Shown: positions 24,450 to 51,669 of the stretch, piece by piece
Position numbering within the stretch: the stretch's first letter is position 1
Layout of the letters: every line of letters begins with the position of its first letter
Source of the DNA: an uncultured virus (IMG/VR IMGVR_UViG_3300032288_004063)
Lineage: Duplodnaviria; Heunggongvirae; Uroviricota; Caudoviricetes
DNA length: 64,000 nucleotides
Virus record (IMG/VR): IMGVR_UViG_3300032288_004063
Direction: 5' to 3' (one strand)
Notes under the pieces: generated by a model
What the model saw: only the letters and a program-made list of their open reading frames with translations
What the model was told of the DNA's origin: nothing
Databases searched by the model: none
Position numbers and translations under genes: made by a program

Positions 24450-26176
24450 TACTCTTTGAAAAAGTTCGTTGGAGAAACTTTCTTTCTACAGGAAATGACT
24501 TCACGGAGATTACACTAAACAAATCTCCTACAACCTTAATCGTAGGAAACAATGGAAGCGGAAAGTCAACACTCTTGGATGCGTTGACTTTCGCTCTATT
24601 TGGTAAACCATTTCGCGGTATCAATAAGCCAGGGCTATTGAATAGCGTCAATGAAAAAGACTGCGTTGTCGAGATAGAGTTCATCATAGGTAAGAAATCC
24701 TACAAGATCCTTCGCGGAATCAAGCCGGGCAAGTTTGAAATCTATTGTGACAATGAACTAGTCAATCAAGATGCGTCTTCGCGAGATTACCAAGAGTATC
24801 TTGAAAAGTTCATTCTCAAGATGAACTACAAGTCTTTTACCCAGATCGTCGTTCTTGGTTCATCTACCTTTGTTCCGTTCATGCAGTTGTCTGCTGCGGA
24901 TCGTCGTGCAATCATAGAAGATCTTTTGGACATACAAATCTTTTCGTCCATGAATGTTGTATTGAAGCAAAAGCTTCAAGCAATCAAGGATGAGATGAGT
25001 GACGTTTCTCATCGTCGGGAAGTTGTAAAGGTCAAGATCGAATCAACGAAAAAGTTGATCAACGAGATTGCCAATACAAAAACTCTTCATATTGAAAAGA
25101 CACAAAGAGACATTGCAAACAGCAAATCTCAAATAGTTACTTTGGAAAAAGAAAAGGCATCTCTTGATCAAGAGATCGTTAAGCTTCAATCTGAAGTCGT
25201 CGGGGAGAAGAAGCTAGTTGGCAAGTCCAACAAGCTAAACAGTCTCATCGTCAAGATACAAGACAATGCCGAGAAGGCACAGAGCGAAATTAATTTCTAT
25301 GAAACCAATGATGATTGCCCGACATGTCGTCAATCAATTAGCGAAGATTTCAAGAAAACCCAGATTCAGACATTTCAAGACAAGATTGCAGAATACGGCA
25401 ATGGTCTTAAGGAAATAGATAATGAATTGGAGAAGATCAATACGCAAATTGCTCAGATCCAAAAGACTTTGAAAAAGATAAAGGACAAGACATTCAAGTC
25501 TCAGGAAAAAAATGCAACTATTACTGCAGTCAATGGTTATATCCAGAAGCTACAAAAAGAAATTGATACCATTGAGCAGAACAAGACAATAGACACAACG
25601 CATACTGATGATCTAAAAGCACTTGAAAAGCAACTGAATGATCTTGTTGAAGACGAGAAGAGATTGGTCAATGATAAGCATCATCATGAACAAGTTTCTA
25701 TTCTACTGAAAGATACTGGTATCAAGACCAAGATCATAAAGCAATATCTTCCAGTCATGAACAAGCTAATCAACAAGTATTTGAGTAGCATGGAGTTCTA
25801 TGTCAACTTCAATATCAATGAAAGCTTTGAGGAGGTCATCAAGTCTCGCCATCGTGATGAATTTGCCTATGAGAATTTTTCTGAAGGCGAAAAGCAAAAG
25901 ATCGATCTGGCATTGCTGTTCACTTGGAGAGCAATTGCCAAGATGAAGAATAGCGTGAATACGAATTTGCTGATACTGGATGAAATCTTTGATAGCTCAT
26001 TGGACTCAAATGGCACGGAAGAACTGTTGAAGATTTTGAACTCCATAAGTAGTGATACCAATGTTTTTGTTATTAGTCACAAGGGTGCATTGCTACAGGA
26101 TAAATTCAAAAGCACAATTGCATTTGTAAAGCACAACAATTTCTCAAGAATTTCTACTGAGGCTAGTTCCTTTTAG
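24446..26176 (+). CDS. gp46: Recombination ATPase gp46 (Rad50/SbcC-like)
   Basis: Walker [10 protein letters not shown], zinc hook CPTC, FSEGEK signature, LILDE, ISHK motifs. Confidence 0.96.
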
Positions 26177-26741
26177 TTCCTTTTAGACCATTATCATGTC
26201 GTCCCGGTTTGAAACCGAATGGTATAGAATCATCTATTAATATCTGTTTTGATTCTATACCGTTTGTTATCCATTTTCTCTTTTGACCTTTTTTAGGGGA
26301 AACAAACATACCTTTTAATCCTAAATTCCAAGGTTTTTTGTTGTACATGGGATTTTTCTTACCTAATTTTGATAGGCGAATATTTTCTGCGTGTTTTTTT
26401 GTTTTTTTAACACCTAAAGTTTTTAGTCTTATTTTATTTCGCGTTGATTCTTTGATTGATAGAGCGCAACCACCAACGCCTCCCACTTTTAGATTATAAG
26501 TATCTTTTCTTTTAACAAAATCCTCATTCACAAGTTCTTTTTCTTTTCGATAAGCGTCATTTTTATGCATAAATATGTACAATATATCTTTGATAAAATT
26601 GTCTATACCATATTTACCTATAGCACGTTTCAGATATATACTTGATCCCATATAATCATCGTATATATTTGATGTTTTATGGACACCAATATAAATTTTG
26701 CCGTTGACTTTATTAGTGATTTGATATATAATGTAATACAT
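26163..26741 (-). mobile_element. Free-standing GIY-YIG (Seg-like) homing endonuclease with NUMOD3-like DNA-binding repeats
   Basis: [30 protein letters not shown], then ESTRNKIR...[13 protein letters not shown]-rich; the only credible minus-strand gene in the window. Confidence 0.88.
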
Positions 26742-26813: not shown

Positions 26814-26867
26814 CAAAAAGTTATAAAGTTTGAAAAGATCAATAATTTTTCAAGGATTGTGAAATGA
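26814..26867 (+). pseudogene. Stranded duplicate gp46 C-terminus (QKVIKFEKINNFSRIVK*)
   Basis: Aligns without gaps to gp46 [15 protein letters not shown] (26108-26152); its TGA overlaps the next ATG. Confidence 0.8.
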
Positions 26868-27160
26868 TGTATAATGATGATTCTTCCAATGTTCAAACGC
26901 ATGCAGTAAAAACCAAGATTGTGACGGTACAACATACTGTAACAGAATTTTGGTTAGAAAATATGTCGATAGACAAGAAGCAGATCTTCGAAGATCTCAT
27001 AAAAGAAAAACTAGCCAACGAAATGGCTAGAACATTGTTGAAGGAAAATCTTGTACTATTTACAAAAGAATCTCATCCGGATAAATTTGATACGATCTAT
27101 CGTGCCAGATGTTATTTGGCTGATAAAGAAGATGTGGCTTTGATTGCAAATATCAAGTGA
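26864..27160 (+). CDS. Hypothetical protein
   Basis: 98-aa ORF. Confidence 0.55.
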   Translation: MMYNDDSSNVQTHAVKTKIVTVQHTVTEFWLENMSIDKKQIFEDLIKEKLANEMARTLLKENLVLFTKESHPDKFDTIYRARCYLADKEDVALIANIK

Positions 27161-27167
27161 GGATAAG

Positions 27168-27740
27168 ATGATAGAAAACGGAATGCTAAAGATCAATACG
27201 GCGGCGCAAACAATAAGACCGTATGAAATATATGATCTAGTCAAATCTACGGATCCAGTATTGAAGCAAGTTTGCAAGCCATTTGATTTTGCAAATCCGC
27301 CAATTGATCCAATTCATCTTGCGTCATCTCTTTTCGAGACGATGTTCAAGCATAGTGGTCTTGGTTTGGCTGCGCCGCAAGTTGGCATACCTTATCGTGT
27401 ATTTGTCGTTGGATATGACAATACGAACAAGCAGGTATTCTTCAATCCAGAAATCATTGAAAGATCTCAAAGAGAAGATGATCATCTTGAAGGCTGCTTG
27501 ACGTTCAAACGTCTATTCTTTAAAGTTTCTCGCCCACAAGAAATCAAGATCAAGTATCAACACGTTAGTGGTGAATGGAAAGAAGACAAGTTTACTGGTC
27601 TTACCGCTCGTTGCATTCAGCACGAATATGATCATCTTGATGGCATTTGCTTTACCGAGAGAGTTGGTAAAACTACTCTGATGATGGCAAGAGAAAAAGA
27701 ACGCAAGATGCGTATCAAAATGACGCGAAATGCTGTATAG
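27168..27740 (+). CDS. def: Peptide deformylase
   Basis: Three PDF motifs GLGLAAPQVG, EGCLT, QHEYDHLDG; start after GAGGA RBS. Confidence 0.95.
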   Translation: MIENGMLKINTAAQTIRPYEIYDLVKSTDPVLKQVCKPFDFANPPIDPIHLASSLFETMFKHSGLGLAAPQVGIPYRVFVVGYDNTNKQVFFNPEIIERSQREDDHLEGCLTFKRLFFKVSRPQEIKIKYQHVSGEWKEDKFTGLTARCIQHEYDHLDGICFTERVGKTTLMMAREKERKMRIKMTRNAV

Positions 27741-27939
27741 TGAATTTATGTATTGGGAGAATCCCATGATGAGTGATAGTGATTTTTTGCATTGGCTTCG
27801 CGATAGACTAATCAATGTTCACGGCGAAGACAATATGAGTGATCATATGATTAGACTATATAAGATTGCAAGGAAATTGGAAGATGATGATTCATATTGG
27901 AACGAAATAACGAAAAATAAGTATAGAGAAACCGATTGA
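27730..27939 (+). CDS. Hypothetical protein
   Basis: Short ORF (FLHWLRDRLINVHGED); the true start may be the internal ATG after GGGAG. Confidence 0.5.
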   Translation: MLYSEFMYWENPMMSDSDFLHWLRDRLINVHGEDNMSDHMIRLYKIARKLEDDDSYWNEITKNKYRETD

Positions 27940-27971
27940 TTTGATGTATAATACGTTTTTTATGGGATGAT

Positions 27972-29210
27972 ATGATGTACCAGAAATATACTGTTGCCGA
28001 TGTAAAAGAGTCTTCAGCGAGAAGACTGTTCAACGTCATTTCCACATTTGCAGGTGGCGGTGGATCTTCCACCGGCTATCGTCTTGCGGGTGGAAATATC
28101 ATTGCAATCAACGAATTCGTTGAAGAAGCAATCAAGACATACTCGACAAATTTTCCAGATACAAAGATCATTCCCGGAGACATCAAGAAATTGACAGGTA
28201 AGGACTTTCTAGAGACGGCTGGTCTAAAGCCAGGCGAACTTGATATACTCGATGGATCCCCTCCATGCTCTGCATTTTCTGTTGCTGGCAAGAGAGAAAA
28301 AGGTTGGGCTGGATATGTCAAAGATACACGCAATTCATATTTTGACGACGAAGGCAATGTCATTGAAGAAGGTGATATTGAAGTTCAAGAGGGTGTAAAG
28401 AAATACTCGGACGGAAAGACTGTCGAGAGTATTGAAAACCTGTTTCTTGAATTCATTCGCATCGCCGAAGAAATCAAGCCAAAGGTAATTGTTGCCGAGA
28501 ACGTCAAGGGTATCACTTTTGGTGAAGCTAAAGAAAAGCTGTATGAGTTCATCAACTCGTTTGAAAAGATTGGCTATCAAGTAACATATCAAGTCTTGAA
28601 TGCCGCAGACTTTGGAGTTCCGCAAGGTAGAGAGCGCACTCTTTTCGTATGCATTCGTGAAGATGTTTGTGATGCTCTAGATTTGAACTTTCTAAATATG
28701 CATTCAACCGTGTTTCCTAATCCAACACATACAAAGCATGTGACGCTTCGCCAAGCTATCGAAGACGTAGAAAACGATCCAAATGAGATTCAAGAACTCA
28801 AGGACTATGTCATGGGGGGATTTCAAAAAGATTGGATCACGAAACTTCCATTCAATCCTACAAGACACACAAAGCCTTCCGACAAGGAATACCGCGATTG
28901 GAATCCAAAGGCATCATGTTTCAACATGATTCGTCCATGTCCAGATCTTCCATGTCCTACGTTGACACAACGTGGACAACAGAAATCTGTCTCAGGTGTA
29001 TTTCACTATGCCGAAAATAGAAAGTTCACGATCAAGGAATTGAAGCGTATCATGAGTCTTCCTGAGGACTTTGTTCTTACTGGCAATTTTGATCAACAAG
29101 CCGAACGTATCGGTCGAATGGTTGCGCCCAAGATGATGGCTGCATTGGCAAGCAGCATTTATGAGAATGTTTTGAAACCATATAATGATAGACAAAATAC
29201 TATGCGATGA
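27972..29210 (+). CDS. dcm: C5 cytosine DNA methyltransferase family; predicted carboxymethyltransferase
   Basis: Motif I FAGGGG, IV DGSPPC, VI ENV, VIII QGRER; motif X reads IGRMVAP (R in place of canonical N). Confidence 0.9.
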   Translation: MMYQKYTVADVKESSARRLFNVISTFAGGGGSSTGYRLAGGNIIAINEFVEEAIKTYSTNFPDTKIIPGDIKKLTGKDFLETAGLKPGELDILDGSPPCSAFSVAGKREKGWAGYVKDTRNSYFDDEGNVIEEGDIEVQEGVKKYSDGKTVESIENLFLEFIRIAEEIKPKVIVAENVKGITFGEAKEKLYEFINSFEKIGYQVTYQVLNAADFGVPQGRERTLFVCIREDVCDALDLNFLNMHSTVFPNPTHTKHVTLRQAIEDVENDPNEIQELKDYVMGGFQKDWITKLPFNPTRHTKPSDKEYRDWNPKASCFNMIRPCPDLPCPTLTQRGQQKSVSGVFHYAENRKFTIKELKRIMSLPEDFVLTGNFDQQAERIGRMVAPKMMAALASSIYENVLKPYNDRQNTMR

Positions 29211-29976
29211 ACTAGAAAAATCTTCAAAGGATGTCAACGTCGCTGTACTCTTATCCGGCGGCGTTGATAGCATTTCTGTGGCTCTTGCCGCTCATAGGCT
29301 GGGCAAGAAGATCACAGCGTATACTTTTCATCTAAAAGATCAACCAACATATGATGCACGAAAAGCAAATGAAATATGCAACATCATGGGTTGGTCATGC
29401 AAGACAATAGAAGTTCCAACTGACAACGTATCAAATGATTTCATGCGTCTTCGTCGTGAAATTGAATGTGTAAAGAAGACACACTATGAATGTTGTTTTC
29501 CATTTCTATATGTGTATCCACAAATAGAAGAGACCGAAGTTTTGAGTGGATGGGCAGCTGATGGTTACTATGGCGTATCGAAGAAAGCAAACATACACTA
29601 TAAGCATACGATGGAAAAATTCAACGAGTTTAGAGAAGACTATTTCAAGATTGATCATCGTGCAGGACATCTTTGGCACAAGAGAATTGCCGATAGTCAC
29701 AACAAGACATTCATAACTCCATATCTCACGGATCCAGTAAAAGAATTCTTTTGGAGCAAAGATTGGTACGAACTCAATCAACCATACCAAAAGCATCATG
29801 TAGTAGAAGCATTTGTCGAGTTTGCACAGTTTGGTGGTGTCAAGAAGCATATTAATCTGCAACTGGGATCTGGAATAGATAAATTGTTTGACTCTGTTCT
29901 GATACCTGATATAATGATCAACTATCGTAAAAGAAAACGTATCATGGACATTTGCAAGGATTGGAGCAATAGATGA
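29185..29976 (+). CDS. Asparagine-synthetase-like ATP-dependent amide ligase (synthetase domain only)
   Basis: PP-loop LLSGGVDS and SGWAADGYYG (compare AsnB SGEGADE); 263 aa with no N-terminal glutaminase domain. Confidence 0.8.
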   Translation: MIDKILCDELEKSSKDVNVAVLLSGGVDSISVALAAHRLGKKITAYTFHLKDQPTYDARKANEICNIMGWSCKTIEVPTDNVSNDFMRLRREIECVKKTHYECCFPFLYVYPQIEETEVLSGWAADGYYGVSKKANIHYKHTMEKFNEFREDYFKIDHRAGHLWHKRIADSHNKTFITPYLTDPVKEFFWSKDWYELNQPYQKHHVVEAFVEFAQFGGVKKHINLQLGSGIDKLFDSVLIPDIMINYRKRKRIMDICKDWSNR

Positions 29977-30671
29977 CACAGAAATTTACCTTTGCCCAGC
30001 GCGAAGAGGGCTTTGATAATCACATTAGTCAGTCAATTCGTGGGTACAATGATCTAATTGGTGATGTCATCAATCTTTCGCAGTACTTTGTTGAAAACGA
30101 TACCATTGTGTACGATATTGGTTGTTCGACGGGCAAGATGCTCAAGGCAATGATTGAACAGAACAAGACTATTGCTCAGAAAGCCCAATATATTGGCATT
30201 GAAATCGAAGAAGATTTCTATCCGCATTTTCAAGAATCTGAAAACAATAGCATTCCATCAAATCTTGGTTTTTTCTGCGGCGATGTTCGCGAGGTCGAAT
30301 TTTCAGCCAAGACTTCATTGGTGACATCAATCTTTACCTTGCAATTCATGCCAAGGCAAGATCGTCAAAATGTCATAAACCAAATTTATGACAGTCTAAT
30401 TCCTGGTGGAGCATTCATCTTTGCTGAAAAGACTTTGTCGAATCATTCCCTAATTCAGGAGATGAGAACCTTCACATACTATGACTTCAAACGTCGGAGT
30501 TTTGAGTATGATGATATCATGACCAAGGAAAAGAAGCTTCGTTCCATGTTGAAGGCAAATACCAGAGATGAATTGATCAATATGTGCATTGAGGCAGGAT
30601 TCAACAAGAATTCAATTGATACATTCTGGCAAAACTATGCATTTACTGGATTCATTGCCATCAAGGACTAA
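29973..30671 (+). CDS. cmoA: CmoA-like carboxy-S-adenosylmethionine synthase
   Basis: FDNHISQSIRGY, VYDIGCSTG, FTLQF, LIPGGAFIFAEK, YDFKR, AGF...FWQNYAF match the CmoA motif order and length. Confidence 0.82.
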   Translation: MTQKFTFAQREEGFDNHISQSIRGYNDLIGDVINLSQYFVENDTIVYDIGCSTGKMLKAMIEQNKTIAQKAQYIGIEIEEDFYPHFQESENNSIPSNLGFFCGDVREVEFSAKTSLVTSIFTLQFMPRQDRQNVINQIYDSLIPGGAFIFAEKTLSNHSLIQEMRTFTYYDFKRRSFEYDDIMTKEKKLRSMLKANTRDELINMCIEAGFNKNSIDTFWQNYAFTGFIAIKD

Positions 30672-30713
30672 TTGGCAATTCCAATATAGATATGTGGTGG
30701 ACTAAAAAAGTCC

Positions 30714-30742
30714 TTGTCTTTACCAAAACAGCAGAGTATACT
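30714..30742 (+). promoter_or_regulatory. Sigma70-type early promoter (predicted leaderless transcript)
   Basis: TTGTCT-17bp-TATACT; ATG begins 7 nt after the -10. Confidence 0.7.
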
Positions 30743-30748
30743 AACCAC

Positions 30749-33091
30749 ATGATGACAGAAAACAGCAACTCCCAAATTCATAGGGAAGCCAAGAGTCAGC
30801 TTGCGCGTCTCATGGCAAACGAAAACCTGACCGTCGAGCATCGTGCGGTTCGTACGGCGTATTTTGATGTTGAGAAGCGTCTTCTTGTCCTTCCAATTTG
30901 GAAGAACATGACTGGCAACATCTATGATACGCTCGTCGGACACGAGGTCGGTCACGCTCTTGACACTCCGCCGTCAGCGGATATTCTAAAGAATGCCATC
31001 GAATCGATTGATGCCAAGAACCCTCGCGGTTCCAAGATGTTTTTGAATGTGATCGAAGACGGTCGCATTGAGAAGCTTGTGCGTCGTCGTTATCCTGGTA
31101 TGCGTCGTTCCTTCTCCCTTGGCTATAAGGATTTGCTGGATCGCAATTTCTTTGGCACCGCTGGACGTAGCATCAAGTCTTACGGTCTGATTGACCGCAT
31201 CAATCTTCATTTGAAGCTTGGTTCTGCAATCATCATCGACTTCACTCCGGCTGAGAAGAAGCTGGTTGAAATGGCTGAGAATTGCGAAAGCTTTGACGAC
31301 GTTGTCAAGGCTGCTCAGGCAATCTATACTTATTGTAAAGAACATAAGGAAGATCAGCCTGAGAATGACGAGGAAAACTATTACGACGATTCGGAGTTCT
31401 ACCCCGATGAGAGTGGTGAGTTTTCCATGCCGTATGAAGACGAGTCTGGCGAGGAGTCTGGCGAGGAGTCTGGTGAAGAATCTGATGAGGCTGACGATTC
31501 TTCATCGGAAGATTCCGATGACTCAGATGAGACTGATAAGTCTGACGGCAAGACTTCGGATGAAGGTTCTGCTGGTGAATCCGGCAAGGACGATGAAGAT
31601 GAGGATTCTTCTGATTCCGAAGATGATGATTCGGAGATCAGTTCTTCCGACGAAGATGAAATTTCCGATCAGGAGACCAAGTCTCCTCTTGATGAGGGAT
31701 TTAGACAGAATCCGACTTCCGAGACTCAGGAGTCTTGGGAATCCAAGAAGGATGAACTCGTTAGGGAAGGGACCAAGGGCTATGTTTATGTAAACATTCC
31801 CGAGGTCAACGGTCATAATTGGATTGTGCCTTACAAGCAGGTTCATGATGGTGGCAATGGCTTCGTCGGTCTTTCTGAGGTGGCTCGTCGCGGCGACATA
31901 TATGGATTTATTCCTGGTCATACCAAGGAGCAGGTTCTTGCAGAGTGCATCAAGTTCCGTTCGGAGAACGCTGCGATAATTTCATACATGGTCAAGGAAT
32001 TTGAGATGCGAAAGGCGGCTGATACCTATTCTCGCTCGTCAATTTCGAAGACTGGTGTGATCAATACCAACAAGCTGCATACCTACAAGTATAATGATGA
32101 CCTGTTCAAGCGCATCACCAATGTGCCTACCGGAAAGAATCATGGACTTGTAATGTTCATTGATTGGTCTGGATCGATGACAACTTCAATTTCTGGATTG
32201 ATTGAGCAGCTTGTAAATATGGTCATGTTCTGCAAGCGTGTTCAGATTCCGTTTGACGTTTATGCATTTTCAAATGTATATGGACATAAGAATATGTCCG
32301 CCGAAGAGATCAGTGCTATCGAAGCACGTCAGCATTCATACAAGGATGGTGATTTGCTTATCAATTCAAGCTTGTATCTGCTTCAGTTGCTGTCTTCAAG
32401 GATGAAGGAAGGCGAGTTCAATCAGGCTATCGGTAATCTTCTGATGCTATGCAAGTTCTTTAGGAAAATGAATGCTGCTGTAGATATCAGGCCTTTTACT
32501 TTCGGTTCTACTCCTTTGGATGCGACTATTGTTTGTGCGACAAGCATTGTCAATGCTTTTCGTGCAAAGCATAAGCTTCAGATCGTCAACACCGTCATTC
32601 TTACCGATGGCGAGGATACAGACAGTATTGAGGTTAAGAACAAGGGCTATAATCCATATACTCAAGATGTGGTTCTTCGTGATACCGTCACCAAGAGTGA
32701 AGCTGTTGTTGATAATCTGTGGGATAATTCTGCCACAACGGCAATCTTCTTGAATCGTCTGCGTGAGAGAACTGGAACGAATGTGATTGGATACTATATA
32801 AATTCCGGTCGAGTGAATTCCATGTCTTTCTCACAGTATTCAGCAGATCCAAATCAGGTCGAGAAGCTGTATAAGGACTATGTAAAGAACAAGTACATTG
32901 AAGTTACCAATCGTGGTTATTCTGTGTACTACATTCTCAAGGCTGAGGAGATGAACATTCAGACCACCGAACTTAATCTTGGTAAGGCAACTACAGCAAA
33001 GAGCATTGCGAAGGTATTTGCCAAGTATTCCAAGAACAAGTTGGACAATCGTATTGTTCTTTCTCGGTTCATTGAGAAAATTAGTGCTTGA
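30749..33091 (+). CDS. CobT-like protein: HExxH metallopeptidase-like domain + acidic linker + VWA domain
   Basis: HEVGHA, NVIEDGRIE, D/E/S-rich linker, MIDAS DWSGS, TPL, LTDGED; adjacent to an AAA ATPase; start set at MMTENS. Confidence 0.8.
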   Translation: MMTENSNSQIHREAKSQLARLMANENLTVEHRAVRTAYFDVEKRLLVLPIWKNMTGNIYDTLVGHEVGHALDTPPSADILKNAIESIDAKNPRGSKMFLNVIEDGRIEKLVRRRYPGMRRSFSLGYKDLLDRNFFGTAGRSIKSYGLIDRINLHLKLGSAIIIDFTPAEKKLVEMAENCESFDDVVKAAQAIYTYCKEHKEDQPENDEENYYDDSEFYPDESGEFSMPYEDESGEESGEESGEESDEADDSSSEDSDDSDETDKSDGKTSDEGSAGESGKDDEDEDSSDSEDDDSEISSSDEDEISDQETKSPLDEGFRQNPTSETQESWESKKDELVREGTKGYVYVNIPEVNGHNWIVPYKQVHDGGNGFVGLSEVARRGDIYGFIPGHTKEQVLAECIKFRSENAAIISYMVKEFEMRKAADTYSRSSISKTGVINTNKLHTYKYNDDLFKRITNVPTGKNHGLVMFIDWSGSMTTSISGLIEQLVNMVMFCKRVQIPFDVYAFSNVYGHKNMSAEEISAIEARQHSYKDGDLLINSSLYLLQLLSSRMKEGEFNQAIGNLLMLCKFFRKMNAAVDIRPFTFGSTPLDATIVCATSIVNAFRAKHKLQIVNTVILTDGEDTDSIEVKNKGYNPYTQDVVLRDTVTKSEAVVDNLWDNSATTAIFLNRLRERTGTNVIGYYINSGRVNSMSFSQYSADPNQVEKLYKDYVKNKYIEVTNRGYSVYYILKAEEMNIQTTELNLGKATTAKSIAKVFAKYSKNKLDNRIVLSRFIEKISA
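31442..31489 (+). repeat. 12-bp tandem repeat (ESGE units) in the acidic linker
   Basis: gagtctggcgag x2, gagtctggtgaa, gaatctgatgag. Confidence 0.85.
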
Positions 33092-34338: not shown

Positions 34339-34367
34339 TTGACAAACCAATTCGGTATTGATATAAT
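34339..34367 (+). promoter_or_regulatory. Consensus sigma70 promoter
   Basis: TTGACA-17bp-TATAAT, exact. Confidence 0.88.
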
Positions 34368-34377
34368 ACTGAATAAT

Positions 34378-34414
34378 GGAGCGGCGTATTTGGTTGCTCG
34401 CCGCTCCGTTTTTT
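34378..34414 (+). terminator. GC-rich hairpin + U tract immediately downstream of the promoter (terminator/attenuator)
   Basis: GGAGCGGCG-12nt-CGCCGCTCC-G-TTTTTT. Confidence 0.65.
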
Positions 34415-34445
34415 CGATGCAACCTTTTGTTATGGAGTGTTATAT

Positions 34446-34715
34446 ATGGCTAAGATTTCTGCTAAGGCTCGTATGCTTTCGGTTCTGAAGGGCAACTCAT
34501 CGTACAATACTTTTTCGGTTGCACAGGGTCGCAATCGTTTTGGTATCAAGAACGTTGCGCAGCGCATTCATGAGCTGCGTCAGGACGGTCACGCAATCTA
34601 CACGAACCTGAAGCGTCGTGGCGATGGCAGCACTGTTCGCGTTTATCGTCTTGGTACTCCTACCAAGGCCATGAAGGCTGCTGCTCGCAAGACCAAGACT
34701 CGTCGTTCTGCCTGA
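34446..34715 (+). CDS. Small basic winged-HTH DNA-binding protein
   Basis: NVAQRIHELRQDGHAIYT...VYRLG wHTH pattern, K/R-rich tail, GGAG RBS. Confidence 0.7.
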   Translation: MAKISAKARMLSVLKGNSSYNTFSVAQGRNRFGIKNVAQRIHELRQDGHAIYTNLKRRGDGSTVRVYRLGTPTKAMKAAARKTKTRRSA

Positions 34716-34738
34716 GTCTAGTATAGGTTGAGCCTATT

Positions 34739-34767
34739 GAAGGGGAAGAGAAATCTTCCCCTTCTTT
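34739..34767 (+). terminator. Rho-independent terminator
   Basis: GAAGGGGAAGA-GAAA-TCTTCCCCTTC-TTT. Confidence 0.85.
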
Positions 34768-41026: not shown

Positions 41027-41043
41027 CTAGAAAGGATACTTTG

Positions 41044-41400
41044 ATGGAACAATACTGGGGTTATCACGCAATGCTTGATTGTCGCGCCTGCGATATTGAA
41101 TTAATCAAGAGTTATGATAATGTTTATAATTTTGCAAAGAGTCTTGTGAATGCTATTGATATGAAAGCCTTTGGAGAACCTCAGATTGTTCATTTTGGCG
41201 AAGGAAATAAAGCTGGATTTACTCTCGTTCAACTCATCGAAACAAGTAATATCTGTGCTCATTTCTGCAATGATACAGGTGACGCATACATTGATGTGTT
41301 TTCCTGCAAACCCTATGATCGCGATGTGGTAAGAGATCAGATCATTCAATTCTTCAATCCACGACAGATCACAGTCAACTACATTGAACGTCAGGCATGA
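41044..41400 (+). CDS. speD: Pyruvoyl-dependent AdoMet decarboxylase homologue (divergent, ETSN type)
   Basis: GYHAMLD, GFTLVQLIETSNICAHF, YIDVFSCK motifs. Confidence 0.8.
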   Translation: MEQYWGYHAMLDCRACDIELIKSYDNVYNFAKSLVNAIDMKAFGEPQIVHFGEGNKAGFTLVQLIETSNICAHFCNDTGDAYIDVFSCKPYDRDVVRDQIIQFFNPRQITVNYIERQA

Positions 41401-41403
41401 GAG

Positions 41404-41748
41404 ATGACTGTATCATACATGGGTCGGCATGTTATTGCTGATTTGCATGATGTATCTGCGGAACTTCTTGGCTCAATTGATTTTTGGAAAGAAATCCTAA
41501 TTGATGGAGCCAAGAAGTCTGGCGCAACAGTACTAAGCGATCACTTTCATCACTTTGGTGATGGATATGGTCTTACTGGTGTAATCGTTCTTGCAGAGAG
41601 TCATATCAGCATTCACACATGGCCAGAAAAAAACTACGCGGCAATCGATGTATTCATGTGCGGGAAATGTGATCCTGAAGTTGCAGTAGATCATATTACA
41701 AGCAGGCTAAATAGTATTGTCAAAAAAGACTTGATTTATCGAAAGTAA
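41404..41748 (+). CDS. speD: S-adenosylmethionine decarboxylase proenzyme (canonical ESH type)
   Basis: GRHVIADL, GLTGVIVLAESHISIHTWPE, AIDVFMCG motifs. Confidence 0.92.
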   Translation: MTVSYMGRHVIADLHDVSAELLGSIDFWKEILIDGAKKSGATVLSDHFHHFGDGYGLTGVIVLAESHISIHTWPEKNYAAIDVFMCGKCDPEVAVDHITSRLNSIVKKDLIYRK

Positions 41749-41784: not shown

Positions 41785-42108
41785 ATGAGATATATTGGCT
41801 ATTCAGTCTCTCGCTGTGTGCGTGATATCGTAAAGAAGCGTGTGAATATTTTAGCAATTGAAGTCGTCATTGGCCGCACAATGATTGAGAATGAGCAACA
41901 CATTGCCGAAGTTTCTCGTGGCTATCATTCACTACCAAAATCTGATTATAGATCATGGGCTGATCTAGATCTTGACGCTTGTCAGAAAGTATTGCTTGAA
42001 CTATATCGTGATGGCAAGCTTCATCAGCCAAGACTATATGGCAAATATCCTATTCGCATGGATAATCATTGGGGTGTGATTGCTCCATTTCCCATGAGCG
42101 CCTTCTAA
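41785..42108 (+). CDS. Hypothetical protein
   Basis: IGYSVSRCVRDI...GKLHQPR; GGGAG RBS. Confidence 0.55.
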   Translation: MRYIGYSVSRCVRDIVKKRVNILAIEVVIGRTMIENEQHIAEVSRGYHSLPKSDYRSWADLDLDACQKVLLELYRDGKLHQPRLYGKYPIRMDNHWGVIAPFPMSAF

Positions 42109-42824
42109 TGAAGGTTGTAGTTATTATTCCAACTACAGGCGACAACAAAGTTCTGCGGGCAATCAAGAGCGTAGAAAATCAAACATATGAAAACACAAGT
42201 TATCTTCTTGTTGTTGATGGAAATAAATTCAAACCAAGATTTGATGATCTATTCGTAAATAGCGATCCATATGTGCCACCAAAAGATGTCGTATATTTAA
42301 AGCACAATACTGGCGCCGATGGATTCTATGGTCATCGCATATACGCAGGTTTCTCCCATCTTGTTAACGAAGACATCGTGCTATTTCTTGATCAGGATAA
42401 TTGGTTTGAACCCGATCATGTTGAAAAGCTTGTAAAGACATTACAAGATAGCAATCTAGCATGGGCGTATAGTCTAAGAAACATATATGACAAAGATGAT
42501 AATTTTCTTTGTCGCGACGATTGCGAAAATCTAGGAAAATATCCTGTGTGGAATGGCATGCACTATCACGTTGATACTAGTGCATATGCGTTTCGTCGTG
42601 AGTTTCTAATTCGCGTTGCTTCGGTGTGGCATTCTGGCTATGCCGGAGATAGACGCTTTTTCAACACAATAAAAGATCTTGCTCCATTTGATACAAGCGG
42701 AGCATATACATTGAATTATAGATTGGATGGCAATCCTAATTCCGCATCGCCTGAATTTTTCATTCATGGAAACAAGATTAATGAGCAAAAATATAATGGT
42801 AATTATCCTTGGAGAAAATCATGA
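42108..42824 (+). CDS. Glycosyltransferase family 2
   Basis: VVVIIPT, AIKSVENQTY, VVDG, FLDQDNWF motifs. Confidence 0.85.
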   Translation: MKVVVIIPTTGDNKVLRAIKSVENQTYENTSYLLVVDGNKFKPRFDDLFVNSDPYVPPKDVVYLKHNTGADGFYGHRIYAGFSHLVNEDIVLFLDQDNWFEPDHVEKLVKTLQDSNLAWAYSLRNIYDKDDNFLCRDDCENLGKYPVWNGMHYHVDTSAYAFRREFLIRVASVWHSGYAGDRRFFNTIKDLAPFDTSGAYTLNYRLDGNPNSASPEFFIHGNKINEQKYNGNYPWRKS

Positions 42825-43399
42825 GCAACATTAAAATTGAGTATATGCAAAAATATGGTTCGGGCAAAATCTTTGTAGAGACTGGGACTTATCTTGGTGA
42901 TACAGTTCAGCTTGCTCTTGATGCGGGATTTGATCTTGTTCATACAATTGAAGTTGATCAAGGTATGTTTGACAAATGTCACGCTCGTTTCAAGGATAAT
43001 TCAAACGTAAAATTGTGGTTTGGTGACTCTGTAGATATAATTCCTCAAATTGCAGATCAACTAGTAGAGCCAGCCACATTTTGGCTTGACGCTCATGCAA
43101 GCGGTCCACTTCAGGGCGGTCGTTATGCTCCGTGTCCTCTTGTTCTGGAACTTGAGTCGATCTATGGAAAAAAGAAATTGCGTTTTACTGAAAACGGTTC
43201 AGAAATGTATCGTGAAAAGTCATCTATTGACACGCACACAATCATGATCGATGATCGTCGTTTGCTTGGATCAGCTGAATGGGGATTCGTGCAGGAAAAG
43301 CAAATCATGGATCTTCTTTTTGCAATCAATCCAAATTATAAGATCGTTTATCTCGATGGCCATCAGGCAAACGATATCATTTGTGCTACGGTAAAATGA
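42821..43399 (+). CDS. Class I SAM methyltransferase-like protein
   Basis: FVETGTYLGDT, TIE, GDS, FWLDAH, IDD motifs. Confidence 0.65.
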   Translation: MSNIKIEYMQKYGSGKIFVETGTYLGDTVQLALDAGFDLVHTIEVDQGMFDKCHARFKDNSNVKLWFGDSVDIIPQIADQLVEPATFWLDAHASGPLQGGRYAPCPLVLELESIYGKKKLRFTENGSEMYREKSSIDTHTIMIDDRRLLGSAEWGFVQEKQIMDLLFAINPNYKIVYLDGHQANDIICATVK

Positions 43400-43400
43400 C

Positions 43401-44270
43401 ATGAAGAAAGATCTAATTCTTGGTTGTATCACAAATTATACTTTTGACAAAGTTGCAAATTGGGCAAATTCAATTGATCGTTCAGGATTTGATGGTCATA
43501 AGCTTGTCATAGCATATAATGTCGGATTTGATATTGTTGATGAACTGACAAAAAGAAACTTTACTGTAGTCACATTCAATCGTGATGACGCAAACAAGAA
43601 ATTTACATATCGCGAAAATTTCAATATCGTCGTTGATCGTTTCTATCATTCTTGGAAAGTATTGAATGATATTGAAGATCAAGTAAGATACGTTATTGCT
43701 ACTGATGTTCGCGATGTTGTATTTCAGACTAATCCTACTGAATTCTTGAACAGTCATATGGGACCTCAGTTTTTTACAAAGATAATTGCTTCTACTGAGG
43801 GCATTCGTTACAAAAATGAGACTTGGGGAAACAACAATATGAAGTTGAGTTTTCCTTTCATTCATGAATATATGTCGAATCATGTAATCTACAATGCTGG
43901 AGTAATGGCAGGTTCTATTGATACAATCAAGGATCTATTTCTCAATATTTACATGATATGTGCAAATATGCCACACACGATTCCTGGTGGTGGTGGACCA
44001 GATCAGGCAGCATACAATGCACTACTATCAATGAACAACTATTCCAATTTCACTATGTTCACAACTGCTAAACAGGCGTGGGCAGCTCAGTTAGGAACAG
44101 TTGCTGATCCAAGCAAGATAAATCAATATAGACCGTATCTAACAGATCATGAACCCATAATTGAGAATGGTGAAGTGTTTAACAATGAGGGTCAAAAATA
44201 TTGCATCGTCCATCAGTACGATAGGGTTCCTAGTCTTTTACCTTTAATCAATCTTAAGTATGGGAAGTGA
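43401..44270 (+). CDS. GT-A-like glycosyltransferase
   Basis: TDVRDVVFQTNP, NAGVMAG, DQAAYN, IVHQYDR motifs. Confidence 0.65.
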   Translation: MKKDLILGCITNYTFDKVANWANSIDRSGFDGHKLVIAYNVGFDIVDELTKRNFTVVTFNRDDANKKFTYRENFNIVVDRFYHSWKVLNDIEDQVRYVIATDVRDVVFQTNPTEFLNSHMGPQFFTKIIASTEGIRYKNETWGNNNMKLSFPFIHEYMSNHVIYNAGVMAGSIDTIKDLFLNIYMICANMPHTIPGGGGPDQAAYNALLSMNNYSNFTMFTTAKQAWAAQLGTVADPSKINQYRPYLTDHEPIIENGEVFNNEGQKYCIVHQYDRVPSLLPLINLKYGK

Positions 44271-44907
44271 CATGAGTGATATCATCAAAATAAACACAAA
44301 AACAAATCAATTTCAAAAAGTAGAACAGCCCCTTACAATAGCTGAATATAAAGAGCAAGGAAAGTGGCCATTCGATTTCATTACTGCAAAAGGTCTTGTT
44401 AGTGTAATTAATGATCTTTCTACTCGTTTGAATAGAAATGTTGTTGGACTTGAAATTGGAGTCTGCAAGGGAGAAAATATCGTTCATTTTCTTGAGCAGA
44501 CGAATAGAATAGATAAGATTCATTGCATTGATCCATATCTTCCATATATGGATTGGATTGGTCCTGTAACTCAGGAAGATGTGAATTTGCATTATGAAAT
44601 TACGATGAAGAACTTTGAGCCGCATAAAGACAAGATCGTATTCTATAAGGATATGTCAGATAATTGTGTAAGCAAGTTTAGCAATGAACAGTTTGACTAC
44701 GTGTTCATTGATGGTGATCACTCTTACGAAGGCGTCAAGAAAGACTTGAATAACTATTACAGTAAAGTCAAAACTGGTGGAATATTTTCTGGACACGACA
44801 TAAATCTACAGTCAGTACAGCAGGCAGTTCGTGAATTTAGAGAGCAAAATTTGATCACAAATCAAATTCAGTTTACTGACGTAAACGTTTGGTATTGGGT
44901 AAAGTGA
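44260..44907 (+). CDS. SAM-dependent methyltransferase (Methyltransf_24-like)
   Basis: LEIGVCKG, CIDPY, FIDGDHSYEGV, GGIFSGHD motifs. Confidence 0.82.
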   Translation: MGSDMSDIIKINTKTNQFQKVEQPLTIAEYKEQGKWPFDFITAKGLVSVINDLSTRLNRNVVGLEIGVCKGENIVHFLEQTNRIDKIHCIDPYLPYMDWIGPVTQEDVNLHYEITMKNFEPHKDKIVFYKDMSDNCVSKFSNEQFDYVFIDGDHSYEGVKKDLNNYYSKVKTGGIFSGHDINLQSVQQAVREFREQNLITNQIQFTDVNVWYWVK

Positions 44908-45773
44908 TGCAAAAAAAGCCACTAAAAATAGGATTTGCTGATGTCTGCACATCCGAATTCTATGAGACTATTCTAAGTCAAAGATATGAATTGACTATTG
45001 ATAATGAAAATCCAGACTTTCTTTTCTTTGGCGATGAAAATTTTGGAACAAGAAATCTTCAATATTCAAAAGATAAGTGCATAAAGATATTTCATACTGG
45101 CGAAAATCGTAGACCAGAAAACTATGATTGTCATTATGCGATGACATTTGATCACAATCCAAATCCTTGGCACTATAGATTGCCGGGCTGGGCATTGGTT
45201 CCATTCTTCTACAAGAAGTATGATTTCACGCATATTTTCAATGCACATACGATCAAGCATGAAAAGACAAAGTTTTGTGTTTTCATTCATAGAAATCCAA
45301 GCAACAATATTCGAAACGTTGTATTTCATGAATTATGTAAGTACAAAAAAGTAGATAGCGCAGGTCCTCTGTTCAATAACATTGGACATGTTATTAGTCC
45401 CGAATATGACGCAAAGCTTGATTTCATCAAAAACTATAAGTTTGTTCTTTCTTTTGAAAATAGTCCGCATCCAGGATATGTTACTGAAAAAATCATGGAC
45501 GGATTCTATGTGAATTCTGTTCCAATTTATTGGGGATCTGCTACTGTCGACCTGGACTTCAATGAAAATAGTTTTATCAATGCAGGCAAGTTTAATAATA
45601 TAAAAGAGTTGATTGATGAAATCATTCGAATTGATAACGATGATCAGCTGTATAATAGCATCATTTTACAAACAAAATTCAAACACAACATTCCACCTTC
45701 TTGCATGATCTATGATAATTTTCTAAATTGGTTTGATGCGATTGTGTATAACAAATTAAACATGAGAACTTAA
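44907..45773 (+). CDS. Alpha-1,3/4-fucosyltransferase (GT10)
   Basis: GT10 motif YKFVLSFENS-x3-YVTEKI...VPIYWG; TGEN and VDSAG motifs. Confidence 0.88.
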   Translation: MQKKPLKIGFADVCTSEFYETILSQRYELTIDNENPDFLFFGDENFGTRNLQYSKDKCIKIFHTGENRRPENYDCHYAMTFDHNPNPWHYRLPGWALVPFFYKKYDFTHIFNAHTIKHEKTKFCVFIHRNPSNNIRNVVFHELCKYKKVDSAGPLFNNIGHVISPEYDAKLDFIKNYKFVLSFENSPHPGYVTEKIMDGFYVNSVPIYWGSATVDLDFNENSFINAGKFNNIKELIDEIIRIDNDDQLYNSIILQTKFKHNIPPSCMIYDNFLNWFDAIVYNKLNMRT

Positions 45774-45775
45774 TC

Positions 45776-46402
45776 GTGTCAGATTTTTCAACCACTGTAC
45801 TGAAAGATGTAGAAATTGATGGTGAAAAGAATTGGCACTATTATCATGAACGTGACAATCAATGGGATCATCTAGTAGACTGTTGGCAAAATACGAAAGA
45901 GTCCTATCTTAAACACATAAAAAACAAGAATGTAATGGTTTGTGCGGGTGGTCATGTGGGAATCTATGCACGATTTTACATGAGATTGTTCAAGACTGTA
46001 TATGTCTTTGAACCGGATTCACAAAGTTTTGTTTGCTTGGTAAACAATACATCAAATAGTAACGTCATCAAGATACAGGCTGCACTAGGTTCAAAAAATC
46101 AGTTGATAAGTTTGCATGGTCCTGCTAAAATGGCTTTATATGCTGTAGATGATAGTGATGGATTTATACCAACTTTCACAATTGATAGTCTTAATTTAAA
46201 TTCGTGTGATGCTATTCAATTGGACATAGAGAATGCTGAACATGATGCTTTGATTGGAGCGGAACAGACTATAAACAAATTTAAACCAACCATAATTCTA
46301 GAAAACGGTGAAACACAAAAAATTCTAGAATTAATGGCTTCAAAAGATTATGTTATTGCCGAAAAAGTACAATATGATACAATTTGGATACCAAAAGAAT
46401 GA
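45776..46402 (+). CDS. FkbM-family methyltransferase
   Basis: AGGHVG, VFEP, AALG, TIDSL, LDIENAE, KPTIILE motifs. Confidence 0.82.
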   Translation: MSDFSTTVLKDVEIDGEKNWHYYHERDNQWDHLVDCWQNTKESYLKHIKNKNVMVCAGGHVGIYARFYMRLFKTVYVFEPDSQSFVCLVNNTSNSNVIKIQAALGSKNQLISLHGPAKMALYAVDDSDGFIPTFTIDSLNLNSCDAIQLDIENAEHDALIGAEQTINKFKPTIILENGETQKILELMASKDYVIAEKVQYDTIWIPKE

Positions 46403-47376
46403 AAAAGCATAAAAAGATAATAGTGTGGGGTGCAAAGTATGATACCGGTCATACACACGCATTCACGCATTCTGCATTCGTAAAAGGTGCTCAATATCTT
46501 GGAGAAGAAGTCTATTGGCTTGATGATCGTGACAATGTTGATCCATCATTCTTTGACGATGCAATAATCTTGTCCGAGCATTGGATTGCAACGACACATC
46601 CAGCAAGTCATAGATTGCCACTAAGAAAGTCTTCGACATATATCATGAACTATCTTGGAAACAAGAAAGGAACTGATAATCCCGGTGCATATTATTATCT
46701 TGGTCGTGTTGGTAGAATAATCGATTTTCGATTTGCAAATGATTGGTCCGACAAATATTGGGAATACAAATACGAACCTGAGAAATATACTCCAATAAAT
46801 GATGGTATATCGCATCTTGAAAAAGGTGAAGAATACGATAACTTCTATAGCATGTGGGCAACAGATCTCATGCCAAATGAAATCAATTTTGATGATAGGT
46901 TTGTGCCATGGCAAGAACCAAAACATGCGTTTTTCTCTGGTACTATTCGTGAAGATAATCATGATCAGTTTGAACCATTCATTCGTGCTTGCAATGAAAA
47001 CAACATGCAGTTTCGATTCAACAATGTTTGGCAGCAAGTTTTGACCATTGATTCAGTAAAGAAACTATCGCTTGATGCATTTCTTGCTCTTGAACTTCGT
47101 CCAAGATTTCATGTGAACAATGGATACAAGTCGTGTCGAGCATTCAAGGTGATTAGTTACGGTCAGCTTGGTATGACAAATTCTCGCGCAGTCTATGATT
47201 ATTTTGATCAAGAGATAGCGTTTCATGAAGATCCATATCAATTGTTTCATGTTGCATCACAGATGAGAAATGATCCCAAGACGAAAGATCTAATTCTAAA
47301 TCAAATGAAGAAGGTTAAAGAAAAGCATACATATGCTAGTAGAATGAAGGATATTATTACAGCTTGTGAAATGTGA
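46399..47376 (+). CDS. Putative glycosyltransferase (GT-B-like)
   Basis: FFSGT, CRAFKVISYG and KEKHTYASR resemble GT-B/CgeB-like C-termini; cluster context. Confidence 0.5.
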   Translation: MKKHKKIIVWGAKYDTGHTHAFTHSAFVKGAQYLGEEVYWLDDRDNVDPSFFDDAIILSEHWIATTHPASHRLPLRKSSTYIMNYLGNKKGTDNPGAYYYLGRVGRIIDFRFANDWSDKYWEYKYEPEKYTPINDGISHLEKGEEYDNFYSMWATDLMPNEINFDDRFVPWQEPKHAFFSGTIREDNHDQFEPFIRACNENNMQFRFNNVWQQVLTIDSVKKLSLDAFLALELRPRFHVNNGYKSCRAFKVISYGQLGMTNSRAVYDYFDQEIAFHEDPYQLFHVASQMRNDPKTKDLILNQMKKVKEKHTYASRMKDIITACEM

Positions 47377-47384
47377 GGTTTATT

Positions 47385-48326
47385 ATGGGCACTATTTTAG
47401 TTACTGGCGGTGCAGGATACATTGGTAGCATTTTCGTAGAGAAGTTGCTACAGCTTGACGGGCATAGGGTTTGTGTTCTTGACAATCTATACTACAATAA
47501 TCAATCATCTCTAAATCATCTAATGCATGACACGCGCCTTGAAGTTAGACGCGGAGATGTTCGTAAACCAAGTGATATTGATCCTCTACTTAGAAAAGCA
47601 GATATCATATTCCCACTAGCTGCCCTTGTAGGAGCTCCTATTTGCAATAGGGATCCTATCGCAGCATCATCAACAAACAAAGATGCTATTTTTTACATGT
47701 TGGACAAGATTAGTCCAAATCAAACGGTAATTATGCCTACGACAAATAGTGCATATGGATCGGGCGATAAAGATAATTTTTGCACGGAGGAGTCGTCTTT
47801 AAATCCAATTTCTCTTTATGCTCGCGATAAAGTTGAAGTTGAAAAAAGATTGATGCAACATCCAAATGCAATTAGCTTTAGACTTGCAACTGTATTTGGA
47901 ATGTCTCCTCGTATGCGTATTGATTTGCTTGTGAACGATTTTACATATCGTGCAGTTCATGATGGATTTGTCGTTTTGTTTGAGAGTCATTTCAAGCGCA
48001 ATTATATTCATGTTCGCGATGTGTGTAATGCATTCATTCATGGAATCAATAATTATCAAAAGATGAATGGTCAAATCTACAATGTTGGTCTTTCTAATGC
48101 GAACATATCAAAACTAGAACTTTGCAAAATGATCCAAACATTTATTCCAAAATTTACTTTCATGGAAGCACCTTACGGTCAAGATCCAGATCAACGAAAC
48201 TACATAGTATCAAATGCCAAAATTGAGGCTACAGGATTCAAGCCAGAATTTTCACTTCAAGATGGCATCGTTGAATTGATCAAGGGTTACGAATTACTTC
48301 GTAATACTCGCCATGGAAATGTATGA
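47385..48326 (+). CDS. NAD-dependent nucleotide-sugar epimerase/dehydratase
   Basis: LVTGGAGYIGS, YARDK (YxxxK), RNYIHVRD motifs. Confidence 0.9.
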   Translation: MGTILVTGGAGYIGSIFVEKLLQLDGHRVCVLDNLYYNNQSSLNHLMHDTRLEVRRGDVRKPSDIDPLLRKADIIFPLAALVGAPICNRDPIAASSTNKDAIFYMLDKISPNQTVIMPTTNSAYGSGDKDNFCTEESSLNPISLYARDKVEVEKRLMQHPNAISFRLATVFGMSPRMRIDLLVNDFTYRAVHDGFVVLFESHFKRNYIHVRDVCNAFIHGINNYQKMNGQIYNVGLSNANISKLELCKMIQTFIPKFTFMEAPYGQDPDQRNYIVSNAKIEATGFKPEFSLQDGIVELIKGYELLRNTRHGNV

Positions 48327-49309: not shown

Positions 49310-49316
49310 GGTTATA

Positions 49317-51235: not shown

Positions 51236-51669
51236 AAATTGCGTTAGTCTCTGGTGGATTTGATCCAATTCATTCTGGTCATATTGAATATTTTCGTTGT
51301 GCAAAAATGTTTGCAGATAGATTGATTGTGGGACTCAATTCAGATAAGTGGTTGATTCGTAAAAAAGGTAACTTTTTTCTTTCATTTCAAGAAAGATTTG
51401 AAATTGTAAAGTCTATTAGATGGGTAGACGAAGTTGTTTCATTTAATGATGACGATGATAGTGCTGCTAGTCTGATACGCGATGTTAGAACAAAATATCC
51501 TGACACTCTAATCATATTTGCAAATGGTGGTGATAGAATAGGTGATACAAGACAAAGTAGACTAGAGATGGAAGCTGCAGATGATAGAATGCTTTTTGCA
51601 GTTGGAGTTGGAGGAACAGGAAAGAAAAATTCTTCATCATTGATTCTAGATAGATGGAAAAAACTATGA
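51232..51669 (+). CDS. Cytidylyl/adenylyltransferase (HIGH family)
   Basis: SGGFDPIHSGH, GLNSD, FANGGDR, NSSS motifs. Confidence 0.85.
   Translation: MKIALVSGGFDPIHSGHIEYFRCAKMFADRLIVGLNSDKWLIRKKGNFFLSFQERFEIVKSIRWVDEVVSFNDDDDSAASLIRDVRTKYPDTLIIFANGGDRIGDTRQSRLEMEAADDRMLFAVGVGGTGKKNSSSLILDRWKKL

Follow-up and report, generated by a model that had tools for sequence, protein, structure and literature searches.

The cmoX-cmoY-cmoA locus

We describe a putative DNA hypermodification cassette in a 64,000-nucleotide stretch of DNA from an uncultured virus of the Caudoviricetes (IMG/VR record IMGVR_UViG_3300032288_004063), hereafter the window. The cassette comprises three overlapping genes on the + strand, cmoX, cmoY and cmoA, which encode homologues of a DNA cytosine C5-carboxymethyltransferase, of an amide ligase and of a carboxy-S-adenosylmethionine (Cx-SAM) synthase, respectively (Table 1). 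An initial annotation, made from the sequence alone, had placed here a cytosine C5 methyltransferase (MTase), an AsnB-like PP-loop enzyme and a CmoA-like protein. The gene boundaries and overlaps that it gave are confirmed, and its three family assignments are borne out by matches to Pfam, NCBIfam and PHROGs models that are much too strong to be accidental. Nucleotide relatives of the locus were not found by megablast among 50,697 phage records, and it was the protein-level searches that were informative.

The genes are tightly packed. cmoX and cmoY overlap by 26 nt, the ATG of cmoY lying at 29185 and the TGA of cmoX at 29208-29210. The stop codon of cmoY and the start codon of cmoA share an ATGA at 29973-29976 (a 4-nt overlap), with a GGAG located 7 nt upstream. 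Judging from the sequence, both overlaps are compatible with co-expression. A promoter and terminator scan detected no + strand terminator-like site inside the cassette (27972-30671), and the nearest one is positioned directly 3' of cmoA. For promoters the scan was uninformative, with 31 promoter-like sites observed against 22.3 ± 5.6 in shuffled sequences, and the 10-of-12 site found just 5' of cmoX was given no weight.

Table 1. Positions of the cmo genes and of other features in the window.
Feature	Position	Strand	Size	Match or remark
cmoX (DNA cytosine C5-carboxymethyltransferase homologue)	27972-29210	+	412 aa	PF00145, best PDB match 8YF3
cmoY (stand-alone AsnB-type PP-loop synthetase domain)	29185-29976	+	263 aa	PF00733
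cmoA (Cx-SAM synthase homologue)	29973-30671	+	232 aa	TIGR00740
Promoter-like site	27924-27952			10 of 12, just 5' of cmoX
Terminator-like site	30699-30713	+		directly 3' of cmoA
GIY-YIG-type homing endonuclease	26163-26741	-		phrog_314, E 5.6e-40
orf98	26864-27160			no family match
orf69	27730-27939			no family match
CobT-like protein	30692-33091		799 aa	phrog_459 'peptidase', E 6e-202; no Pfam match
CobS-like AAA_5 ATPase	33088-34335			gene overlaps CobT-like gene
Perfect sigma-70 consensus	34339-34367			TTGACA, 17 nt, TATAAT, with TG
Winged-helix protein	34437-34715		92 aa	PF14090
Terminator-like hairpin	34739-34764		11 pairs	strongest of the scanned region
SAM decarboxylase-like ORF	41041-41400		119 aa	phrog_3125, E 1e-21
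SAM decarboxylase-like ORF	41404-41748		114 aa	phrog_3125, E 6e-27
Sugar-nucleotide and methyltransferase-like block	about 42069-55143		13 kb	several ORFs without match
2OG-Fe(II) oxygenase	55368-56051			3' of the 13-kb block

The three proteins have homologues of established function. The initial annotation had pointed, correctly, to a similar pathway in a cyanophage, which was shown in Synechococcus phage S-B43 by Yang et al. (Nat Commun 2025; PMC12783734; December 2025). Besides this paper, no other on such a system was found in the literature. In S-B43, CmoA (SpCmoA) converts S-adenosylmethionine (SAM) and prephenate to Cx-SAM, and SpCmoX, a C5-MTase homologue of known structure (8YF3), carboxymethylates C5 of cytosines in GC motifs, yielding 5-carboxymethylcytosine (5cxmC). 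Wild-type SpCmoX takes Cx-SAM only. SpCmoY then uses ATP to ligate glycine to the 5cxmC carboxylate, and it is proposed that the carboxylate is first adenylated and then attacked by the amine. The product, 5-glycylcarboxymethyl-deoxycytidine (5gcxmdC, m/z 343.1), is present in S-B43 virion DNA, and DNA treated with SpCmoX, which carries the 5cxmC intermediate, resisted HhaI (PMC12783734). A survey of IMG/VR v4, UniProtKB and MGnify-derived phage sequences in the same paper counted 5,615 candidate CmoX, 4,257 CmoA and 2,251 ligase sequences (PMC12783734).

Residues and folds of CmoX, CmoY and CmoA

The cmoX product matches PF00145 with an E-value of 3.8e-58. Its best match among solved structures is SpCmoX (8YF3; phmmer E 1.2e-109), followed by the HaeIII methylase (4.7e-26). 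The two CmoX proteins are 54% identical in the alignment and match with an E-value of 6e-100 in a tblastn search of S-B43, so that both E-values pass the threshold of the published CmoX network (E 1e-70, ~50% identity; PMC12783734). In that work a candidate CmoX is defined by an SPPC motif (S95-C98 in SpCmoX) together with an arginine equivalent to R350, which contacts the carboxymethyl group of Cx-SAM where HhaI has Asn304 (PMC12783734). The window's CmoX has SPPC at 96-99, ENV at 176-178, QxRxR at 218-222, and Arg382, within GRMV, aligned with SpCmoX R350. The asparagine of motif X (GN; HhaI N304) that marks canonical 5-methylcytosine (5mC) MTases is replaced by this arginine, and the other C5-MTase motifs are all present. 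We aligned 82 CmoX sequences, from the window, 79 related IMG/VR loci, S-B43 and Synechococcus phage S-CRM01. All 81 sequences that cover the SPPC site retain the motif (one does not cover it), and all 80 that cover the arginine position have the arginine.

A close relative serves as a negative control. Methylophilales phage Melnitz (MZ577097.1, 4010-6194), a related marine T4-like phage, encodes an MTase that is 44% identical to CmoX and has a leucine (GLMV) instead of the diagnostic arginine. Its gene overlaps a downstream gene for a Tet_JBP 2OG-Fe(II) dioxygenase, and the 9.2-kb locus holds no CmoA. By its sequence this is a module of the 5mC oxidation type, not one of carboxymethyl transfer. 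The diagnostic arginine thus tracks association with CmoA and not mere membership of the clade.

Regions of the protein differ in their identity to SpCmoX, which reaches 68% in the N-terminal cofactor-binding part (residues 1-106), 57% over motifs V-VIII (142-230) and 56% over the C-terminal motifs (346-402), and falls to 33% in the variable, target-recognition region (231-345). The loop leading from Cys99 to a conserved YSDG comprises 45 residues, which is 19 more than the 26 of S-B43. Of the 82 aligned sequences, 65 have a loop of 45 to 47 residues, and the long loop is therefore typical of this environmental clade.

The cmoY product matches PF00733 (Asn_synthase, E 8.5e-12) over residues 14-133, which covers the PP-loop or synthetase part only. 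Like SpCmoY, which Supplementary Table 1 of the S-B43 paper gives as being without an amidase domain (PMC12783734), it has no glutaminase domain. The two proteins are 51% identical over their full length (tblastn against S-B43: E 3e-79, 50% identity), and share the MID N-terminus; the window's protein carries SGGVDS at 24-29. A phmmer search of PDB sequences returned nothing at E<=0.01 for CmoY. Its AlphaFold2 model, built from 27 sequences (mean predicted local distance difference test score, pLDDT, 91.0; predicted TM score, pTM, 0.89), matches AsnB-family synthetase domains in Foldseek, with E-values of about 5e-9 to 4e-8. These include Escherichia coli AsnB (1ct9, TMq 0.80), human ASNS, beta-lactam synthetase and carbapenam synthetase. 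CmoY shares with AsnB and the beta-lactam and carbapenam synthetases the fold of the synthetase domain (TMq 0.64-0.80) and the PP-loop. It differs from them in having no N-terminal glutaminase domain, in sequence (13-16% identity), and in its predicted carboxylate substrate, which would be a modified base in duplex DNA. These fold matches support an adenylate-then-amidate mechanism.

Among NCBIfam models, the cmoA product matches that of CmoA best (TIGR00740, E 1.9e-30, 106.3 bits). The protein is 48.5% identical to SpCmoA (E 6e-61) and 52.8% identical to the S-CRM01 homologue in tblastn searches, and matches the PDB entries 1im8 and 4gek with E-values of about 1e-20. The SAM contacts described for E. 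coli CmoA include Tyr39, Asp62, Gly64, Ser66, Asp89, Asp117 and Phe137 (Byrne et al. 2013; PMC3663124). Six of them are identical in the window's protein, as Tyr25, Asp48, Gly50, Ser52, Asp104 and Phe125, and Asp89 is replaced by Glu77. Neither Asn90 nor Asn132 of E. coli CmoA is retained: the window's protein has Ile at both positions, and SpCmoA has Leu.

Co-occurrence of the genes and their relatives

An IMG/VR scan retrieved 79 distinct loci whose CmoX is 62-100% identical to that of the window, some contigs carrying a CmoX that is 100% identical, and gene content was determined by tblastn. All three genes are present in 64 of the 79 loci, in three gene orders: Y-X-A (44 loci), X-Y-A, which is the order of the window (16), and X-A-Y (4). 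The remainder comprises ten loci with cmoX and cmoA only, three with cmoY and cmoX only, and two with cmoX only. The co-occurrence that the initial annotation had asked to be checked is thus observed, and the objection that the genes do not travel together fails.

Part of the incomplete loci are cut short by their contigs. The contigs of the five loci in which cmoA was not found (three with cmoY and cmoX, two with cmoX) end within 1109 nt 3' of cmoX, short of where cmoA begins in the complete loci most closely related to them. Detected in 74 of the 79 loci, cmoA is therefore absent from none for certain. Among the ten loci with cmoX and cmoA, four contigs (L039, L055, L075 and L076) end less than 100 nt left of cmoX, and in L072 the right flank is too short to judge cmoY. 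In the other five (L015-L018 and L063) flanks are present and cmoY was not found within them. These five phages and S-CRM01, which have the cmoX-cmoA pair without cmoY, may have 5cxmC as their end product or employ an unrelated ligase.

S-B43 and S-CRM01 are the closest described relatives. The S-B43 system has the same three protein families (48.5-54% identity) in a T4-like myovirus, SPPC and the Cx-SAM arginine in CmoX, a CmoY without glutaminase domain, genes tightly packed on one strand, and no CmoB found. Its gene order is A-Y-X, as opposed to X-Y-A in the window, and its CmoX differs in the loop and in the variable region described above. The S-B43 cassette lies 3' of a gene annotated as DNA primase-helicase, whereas that of the window is placed in a gp46, peptide deformylase, cmo, CobT-like, CobS array. 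S-CRM01 has a CmoX that is 53% identical in the alignment, and its cmoA and cmoX are likewise adjacent and overlapping, whereas it has no CmoY homologue. Only three Synechococcus phage records (S-B05, RB11-B and S-B43) match CmoY at E<=1e-5.

A protein of 480-507 residues is encoded inside or just after the cassette in 13 of the 79 loci. Its gene is placed between cmoX and cmoY in L024 (7340-8776), between cmoA and cmoY in L028 and L029 (3253-4776 in the latter), and after cmoA in L026, L034, L036-L039, L041, L044, L045 and L047. The protein carries a DGGHR motif, which we take to be ParB/DUF262-like, and a C-terminal HNH nuclease. It occurs in two types that are 23% identical (E 5e-22), one of which has a weak GmrSD_N match. 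In the window no match to it better than E 1.3 was found. The 'ParBc' neighbours mentioned in the S-B43 paper (PMC12783734) may be this protein, for which homing or the cleavage of other DNA are candidate functions. In L016, small ORFs are found between cmoA and the CobT-like gene, one of which encodes a DUF7717 protein.

In Erwinia jumbo phages (Alexandravirus; pEa_SNUABM_3, NC_061445.1, 12252-17130), a CmoA-like gene (~29% identity) and a CmoY-like gene (34%) are separated by genes for a 420-aa protein without Pfam match, a DUF1611 protein and an Ala_racemase_N (PLP) protein. The window's CmoX has no match at E<=1e-30 in the Erwinia phage records. Judging from its gene content, the cluster may use Cx-SAM for a hypermodification of another kind.

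Predicted modification pathway and alternatives

We consider it very probable that the cassette carboxymethylates the phage's own cytosines and then amidates them, most likely with glycine. The three genes would form a translationally coupled unit that hypermodifies phage DNA after replication. CmoA would make Cx-SAM from SAM and host prephenate. CmoX would flip out the target cytosine, Cys99 would attack C6, and the carboxymethyl group would be transferred to C5 to give 5cxmC, with Arg382 holding the carboxylate of the cofactor in place of the asparagine of ordinary 5mC MTases. CmoY would adenylate the new carboxylate with ATP and couple an amine to it, most likely glycine, yielding 5-glycylcarboxymethylcytosine (5gcxmC), which would block restriction enzymes. 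The basis for this in the window is homology, the diagnostic residues, the CmoY fold and gene co-occurrence. The enzyme activities, the GC motif and the use of glycine were shown for the S-B43 homologues, and by analogy the same chemistry would operate here. The chain from CmoA to Cx-SAM, to 5cxmC and to an amide was already drawn in the initial annotation, and it gains from a pathway shown for homologues that are ~50% identical, the CmoX diagnostics being present. As to the final product, amide formation stands, and the carbamoylmethyl group (+57 Da) that the annotation had proposed is less likely, since the validated CmoY uses glycine and not ammonia and the window's CmoY has no glutaminase domain.

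Several points weigh against this interpretation. The whole assignment for the window's phage would stand on about 50% identity. The CmoA score of 106.3 bits is below the equivalog cut-off of TIGR00740 (193.3). The validated SpCmoA (115.6) and the S-CRM01 protein (119.1) are under it as well, with E. coli CmoA at 455, and the failure is therefore a property of the phage clade. Arg199 of E. coli CmoA forms a salt bridge with the carboxylate of the cofactor, according to Byrne et al. (PMC3663124). In an alignment of 53 sequences (52 non-redundant phage CmoAs and the E. coli protein), this arginine pairs with a glutamate, Glu186 in the window, which is invariant in the 52 phage sequences, including SpCmoA. 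An arginine four residues further on (Arg190) is equally invariant in all 52, SpCmoA included, which suggests that in the phage proteins the key arginine may be displaced by roughly one turn of the helix. Because SpCmoA, the more active enzyme with a kcat tenfold above that of E. coli CmoA (PMC12783734), shares both residues, they would be a feature of the clade and not evidence against CmoA function. The 33% identity of the CmoX variable region and the longer catalytic loop mean that the GC motif is not transferable. The specificity of SpCmoX should thus not be assumed for the window's enzyme, whose motif may differ, and dinucleotide statistics (GC observed/expected 1.10) carry no information on the target. 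Members of the SpCmoY cluster are said to share the residues that bind the glycine carboxylate (PMC12783734); as far as the published text shows, these are given only in Supplementary Fig. 8, whose legend names none. Finally, the search for CmoB covered the window and the 31.9-kb IMG/VR fragment G001, which is 99% identical over 27000-31500, and a CmoB might be encoded elsewhere in the phage genome. The proposed chain is least secure in two places, the choice of amine and the target motif.

The amine step is where the best-surviving alternative departs. It keeps the pathway up to 5cxmC and has CmoY couple ammonia, giving 5-carbamoylmethylcytosine, another alpha-amino acid or a polyamine. AsnB-type synthetase domains accept free ammonia, CmoY is only 51% identical to SpCmoY, and the SAM decarboxylase-like genes at 41041-41748 hint at polyamine metabolism, with no link to the cassette. 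Against these points, the match between CmoY and SpCmoY is well past the threshold of the published ligase clusters (E 1e-56, ~30% identity), so that CmoY would join the SpCmoY cluster, which uses glycine, and ammonia use was assigned to a cluster with a glutaminase domain, which CmoY does not have (PMC12783734). Glycine is, by analogy, probably the amine coupled by the window's CmoY, though we hold this with some reserve, and a different amine as an explanation of the whole locus appears improbable.

Far less probable is that the three genes are unrelated neighbours, an ordinary 5mC MTase next to a CmoA and a PP-loop enzyme that act on host tRNA (5-carboxymethoxyuridine, cmo5U, formation or a thiolation- or queuosine-like reaction). 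Database labels lean this way: PHROGs names the family of the window's CmoA 'tRNA methyltransferase', the PP-loop protein has weak Pfam and NCBIfam matches to QueC, MnmA and LarE, and PADLOC gives generic MTase matches only, calling CmoX a type II methyltransferase. The replacement of the motif-X asparagine by arginine is on the other hand the change that defines Cx-SAM use in SpCmoX, and the close relative with a leucine at this position pairs with a TET-type gene and not with CmoA. The genes are also found together in 64 of 79 loci despite three rearrangements. As the initial annotation had remarked, neither CmoB nor tRNA is visible in the window: a tblastn search with E. coli CmoB gave nothing better than E 0.94, and the 64 kb contain no tRNA gene; nor did TIGR00452 match in G001. 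The phage system shares with the E. coli CmoA/CmoB pathway for cmo5U the fold of the Cx-SAM synthase and most of its SAM-contact residues, and differs in its acceptor enzyme, which is a DNA C5-MTase homologue and not CmoB, in the glutamate at the Arg199 position with the arginine four residues on, and in scoring below the equivalog cut-off. Least credible of all is that CmoA mainly drains host SAM to blunt SAM-dependent defences, with DNA carboxymethylation secondary: the idea is raised as an open question in the Discussion of the S-B43 paper (PMC12783734) and would fit the high kcat of SpCmoA, whereas cmoA is linked to cmoX wherever the flank suffices, which argues for cofactor supply to CmoX as the selected function, even if the two roles are not mutually exclusive.

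On the reading that we prefer, the window's genes are, by sequence, a new example of a known system and not a new system, and what is known of the chemistry is unchanged. What would set this cassette apart is the X-Y-A order, a CmoX with a long catalytic loop and a diverged recognition region, and a T4-like lineage whose host is possibly non-cyanobacterial. A pathway characterised in one cultured cyanophage is thereby extended to a widespread uncultured T4-like lineage with 79 related IMG/VR loci, in which the cassette occupies a fixed genomic slot and is internally shuffled into three gene orders. With its different recognition region and longer loop, the CmoX of this clade could, together with CmoY variants, help to map the sequence specificity and the amine scope, both of which are left open in the S-B43 paper (PMC12783734). 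It is possible, albeit rather doubtful, that CmoX writes 5cxmC outside GC, or that CmoY couples an amine other than glycine, or both, in phages of a non-cyanobacterial host. If true, this would be an undescribed hypermodified cytosine or modification pattern in such phages.

Genomic surroundings

Judging from PHROG family matches, the window belongs to a T4-like myovirus. The structural set, in T4 terms, includes head-tail and tail-sheath proteins (gp13/14/15-like), terminase, sheath, tube, portal, prohead protease, scaffold and major capsid protein. Replication and regulation are represented by UvsY, a UvsW-like helicase, gp55, gp47/46, clamp, clamp loader, RegA, DNA polymerase, UvsX and a gp41-like helicase. 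Phages of Stenotrophomonas, Pelagibacter, Methylophilales and Synechococcus have major capsid proteins that share 61-66% identity with that of the window; the four groups are about equally distant, which points to no particular host. Photosynthesis genes were not found in the window.

The slot of the cassette is common to diverged relatives. It runs from gp46 through a variable homing endonuclease, orf98, peptide deformylase, orf69 and the cmo genes to a CobT-like gene and a CobS-like AAA ATPase. Both orf98 and orf69 were considered as parts of the system and rejected; they have no family match and were found only in loci of the X-Y-A order, not in those of the Y-X-A and X-A-Y orders. The GIY-YIG homing endonuclease gene is the sole minus-strand gene among the 79 ORFs called in the window. 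It is present in the near-identical loci L005-L007 and was not found in L004 and L008-L011, in which the spacing between the starts of the gp46 and orf98 matches is ~700 nt shorter. Such a pattern would fit a mobile endonuclease whose presence is polymorphic.

The CobT-like and CobS-like pair follows the cassette in related loci whose downstream flank matched. The CobT-like protein contains a long acidic stretch rich in Asp, Glu and Ser (about residues 220-330). Further downstream, the sigma-70 consensus lies 5' of the winged-helix gene and the strongest terminator-like hairpin 3' of it, and the three elements (34339-34764) look like a self-contained small transcription unit, judging from the sequence.

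The tandem SAM decarboxylase-like ORFs represent a duplicated SAM-consuming auxiliary gene, CmoA being a SAM consumer as well. In the 13-kb block that follows, six ORFs match phrog_540 (nucleotide-sugar epimerase; one of them weakly), two match phrog_7878 (heptose adenylyltransferase-like), and two are methyltransferase-like (phrog_2675 and phrog_8156). Host surface glycan or other glycosylation are candidate roles for this block.

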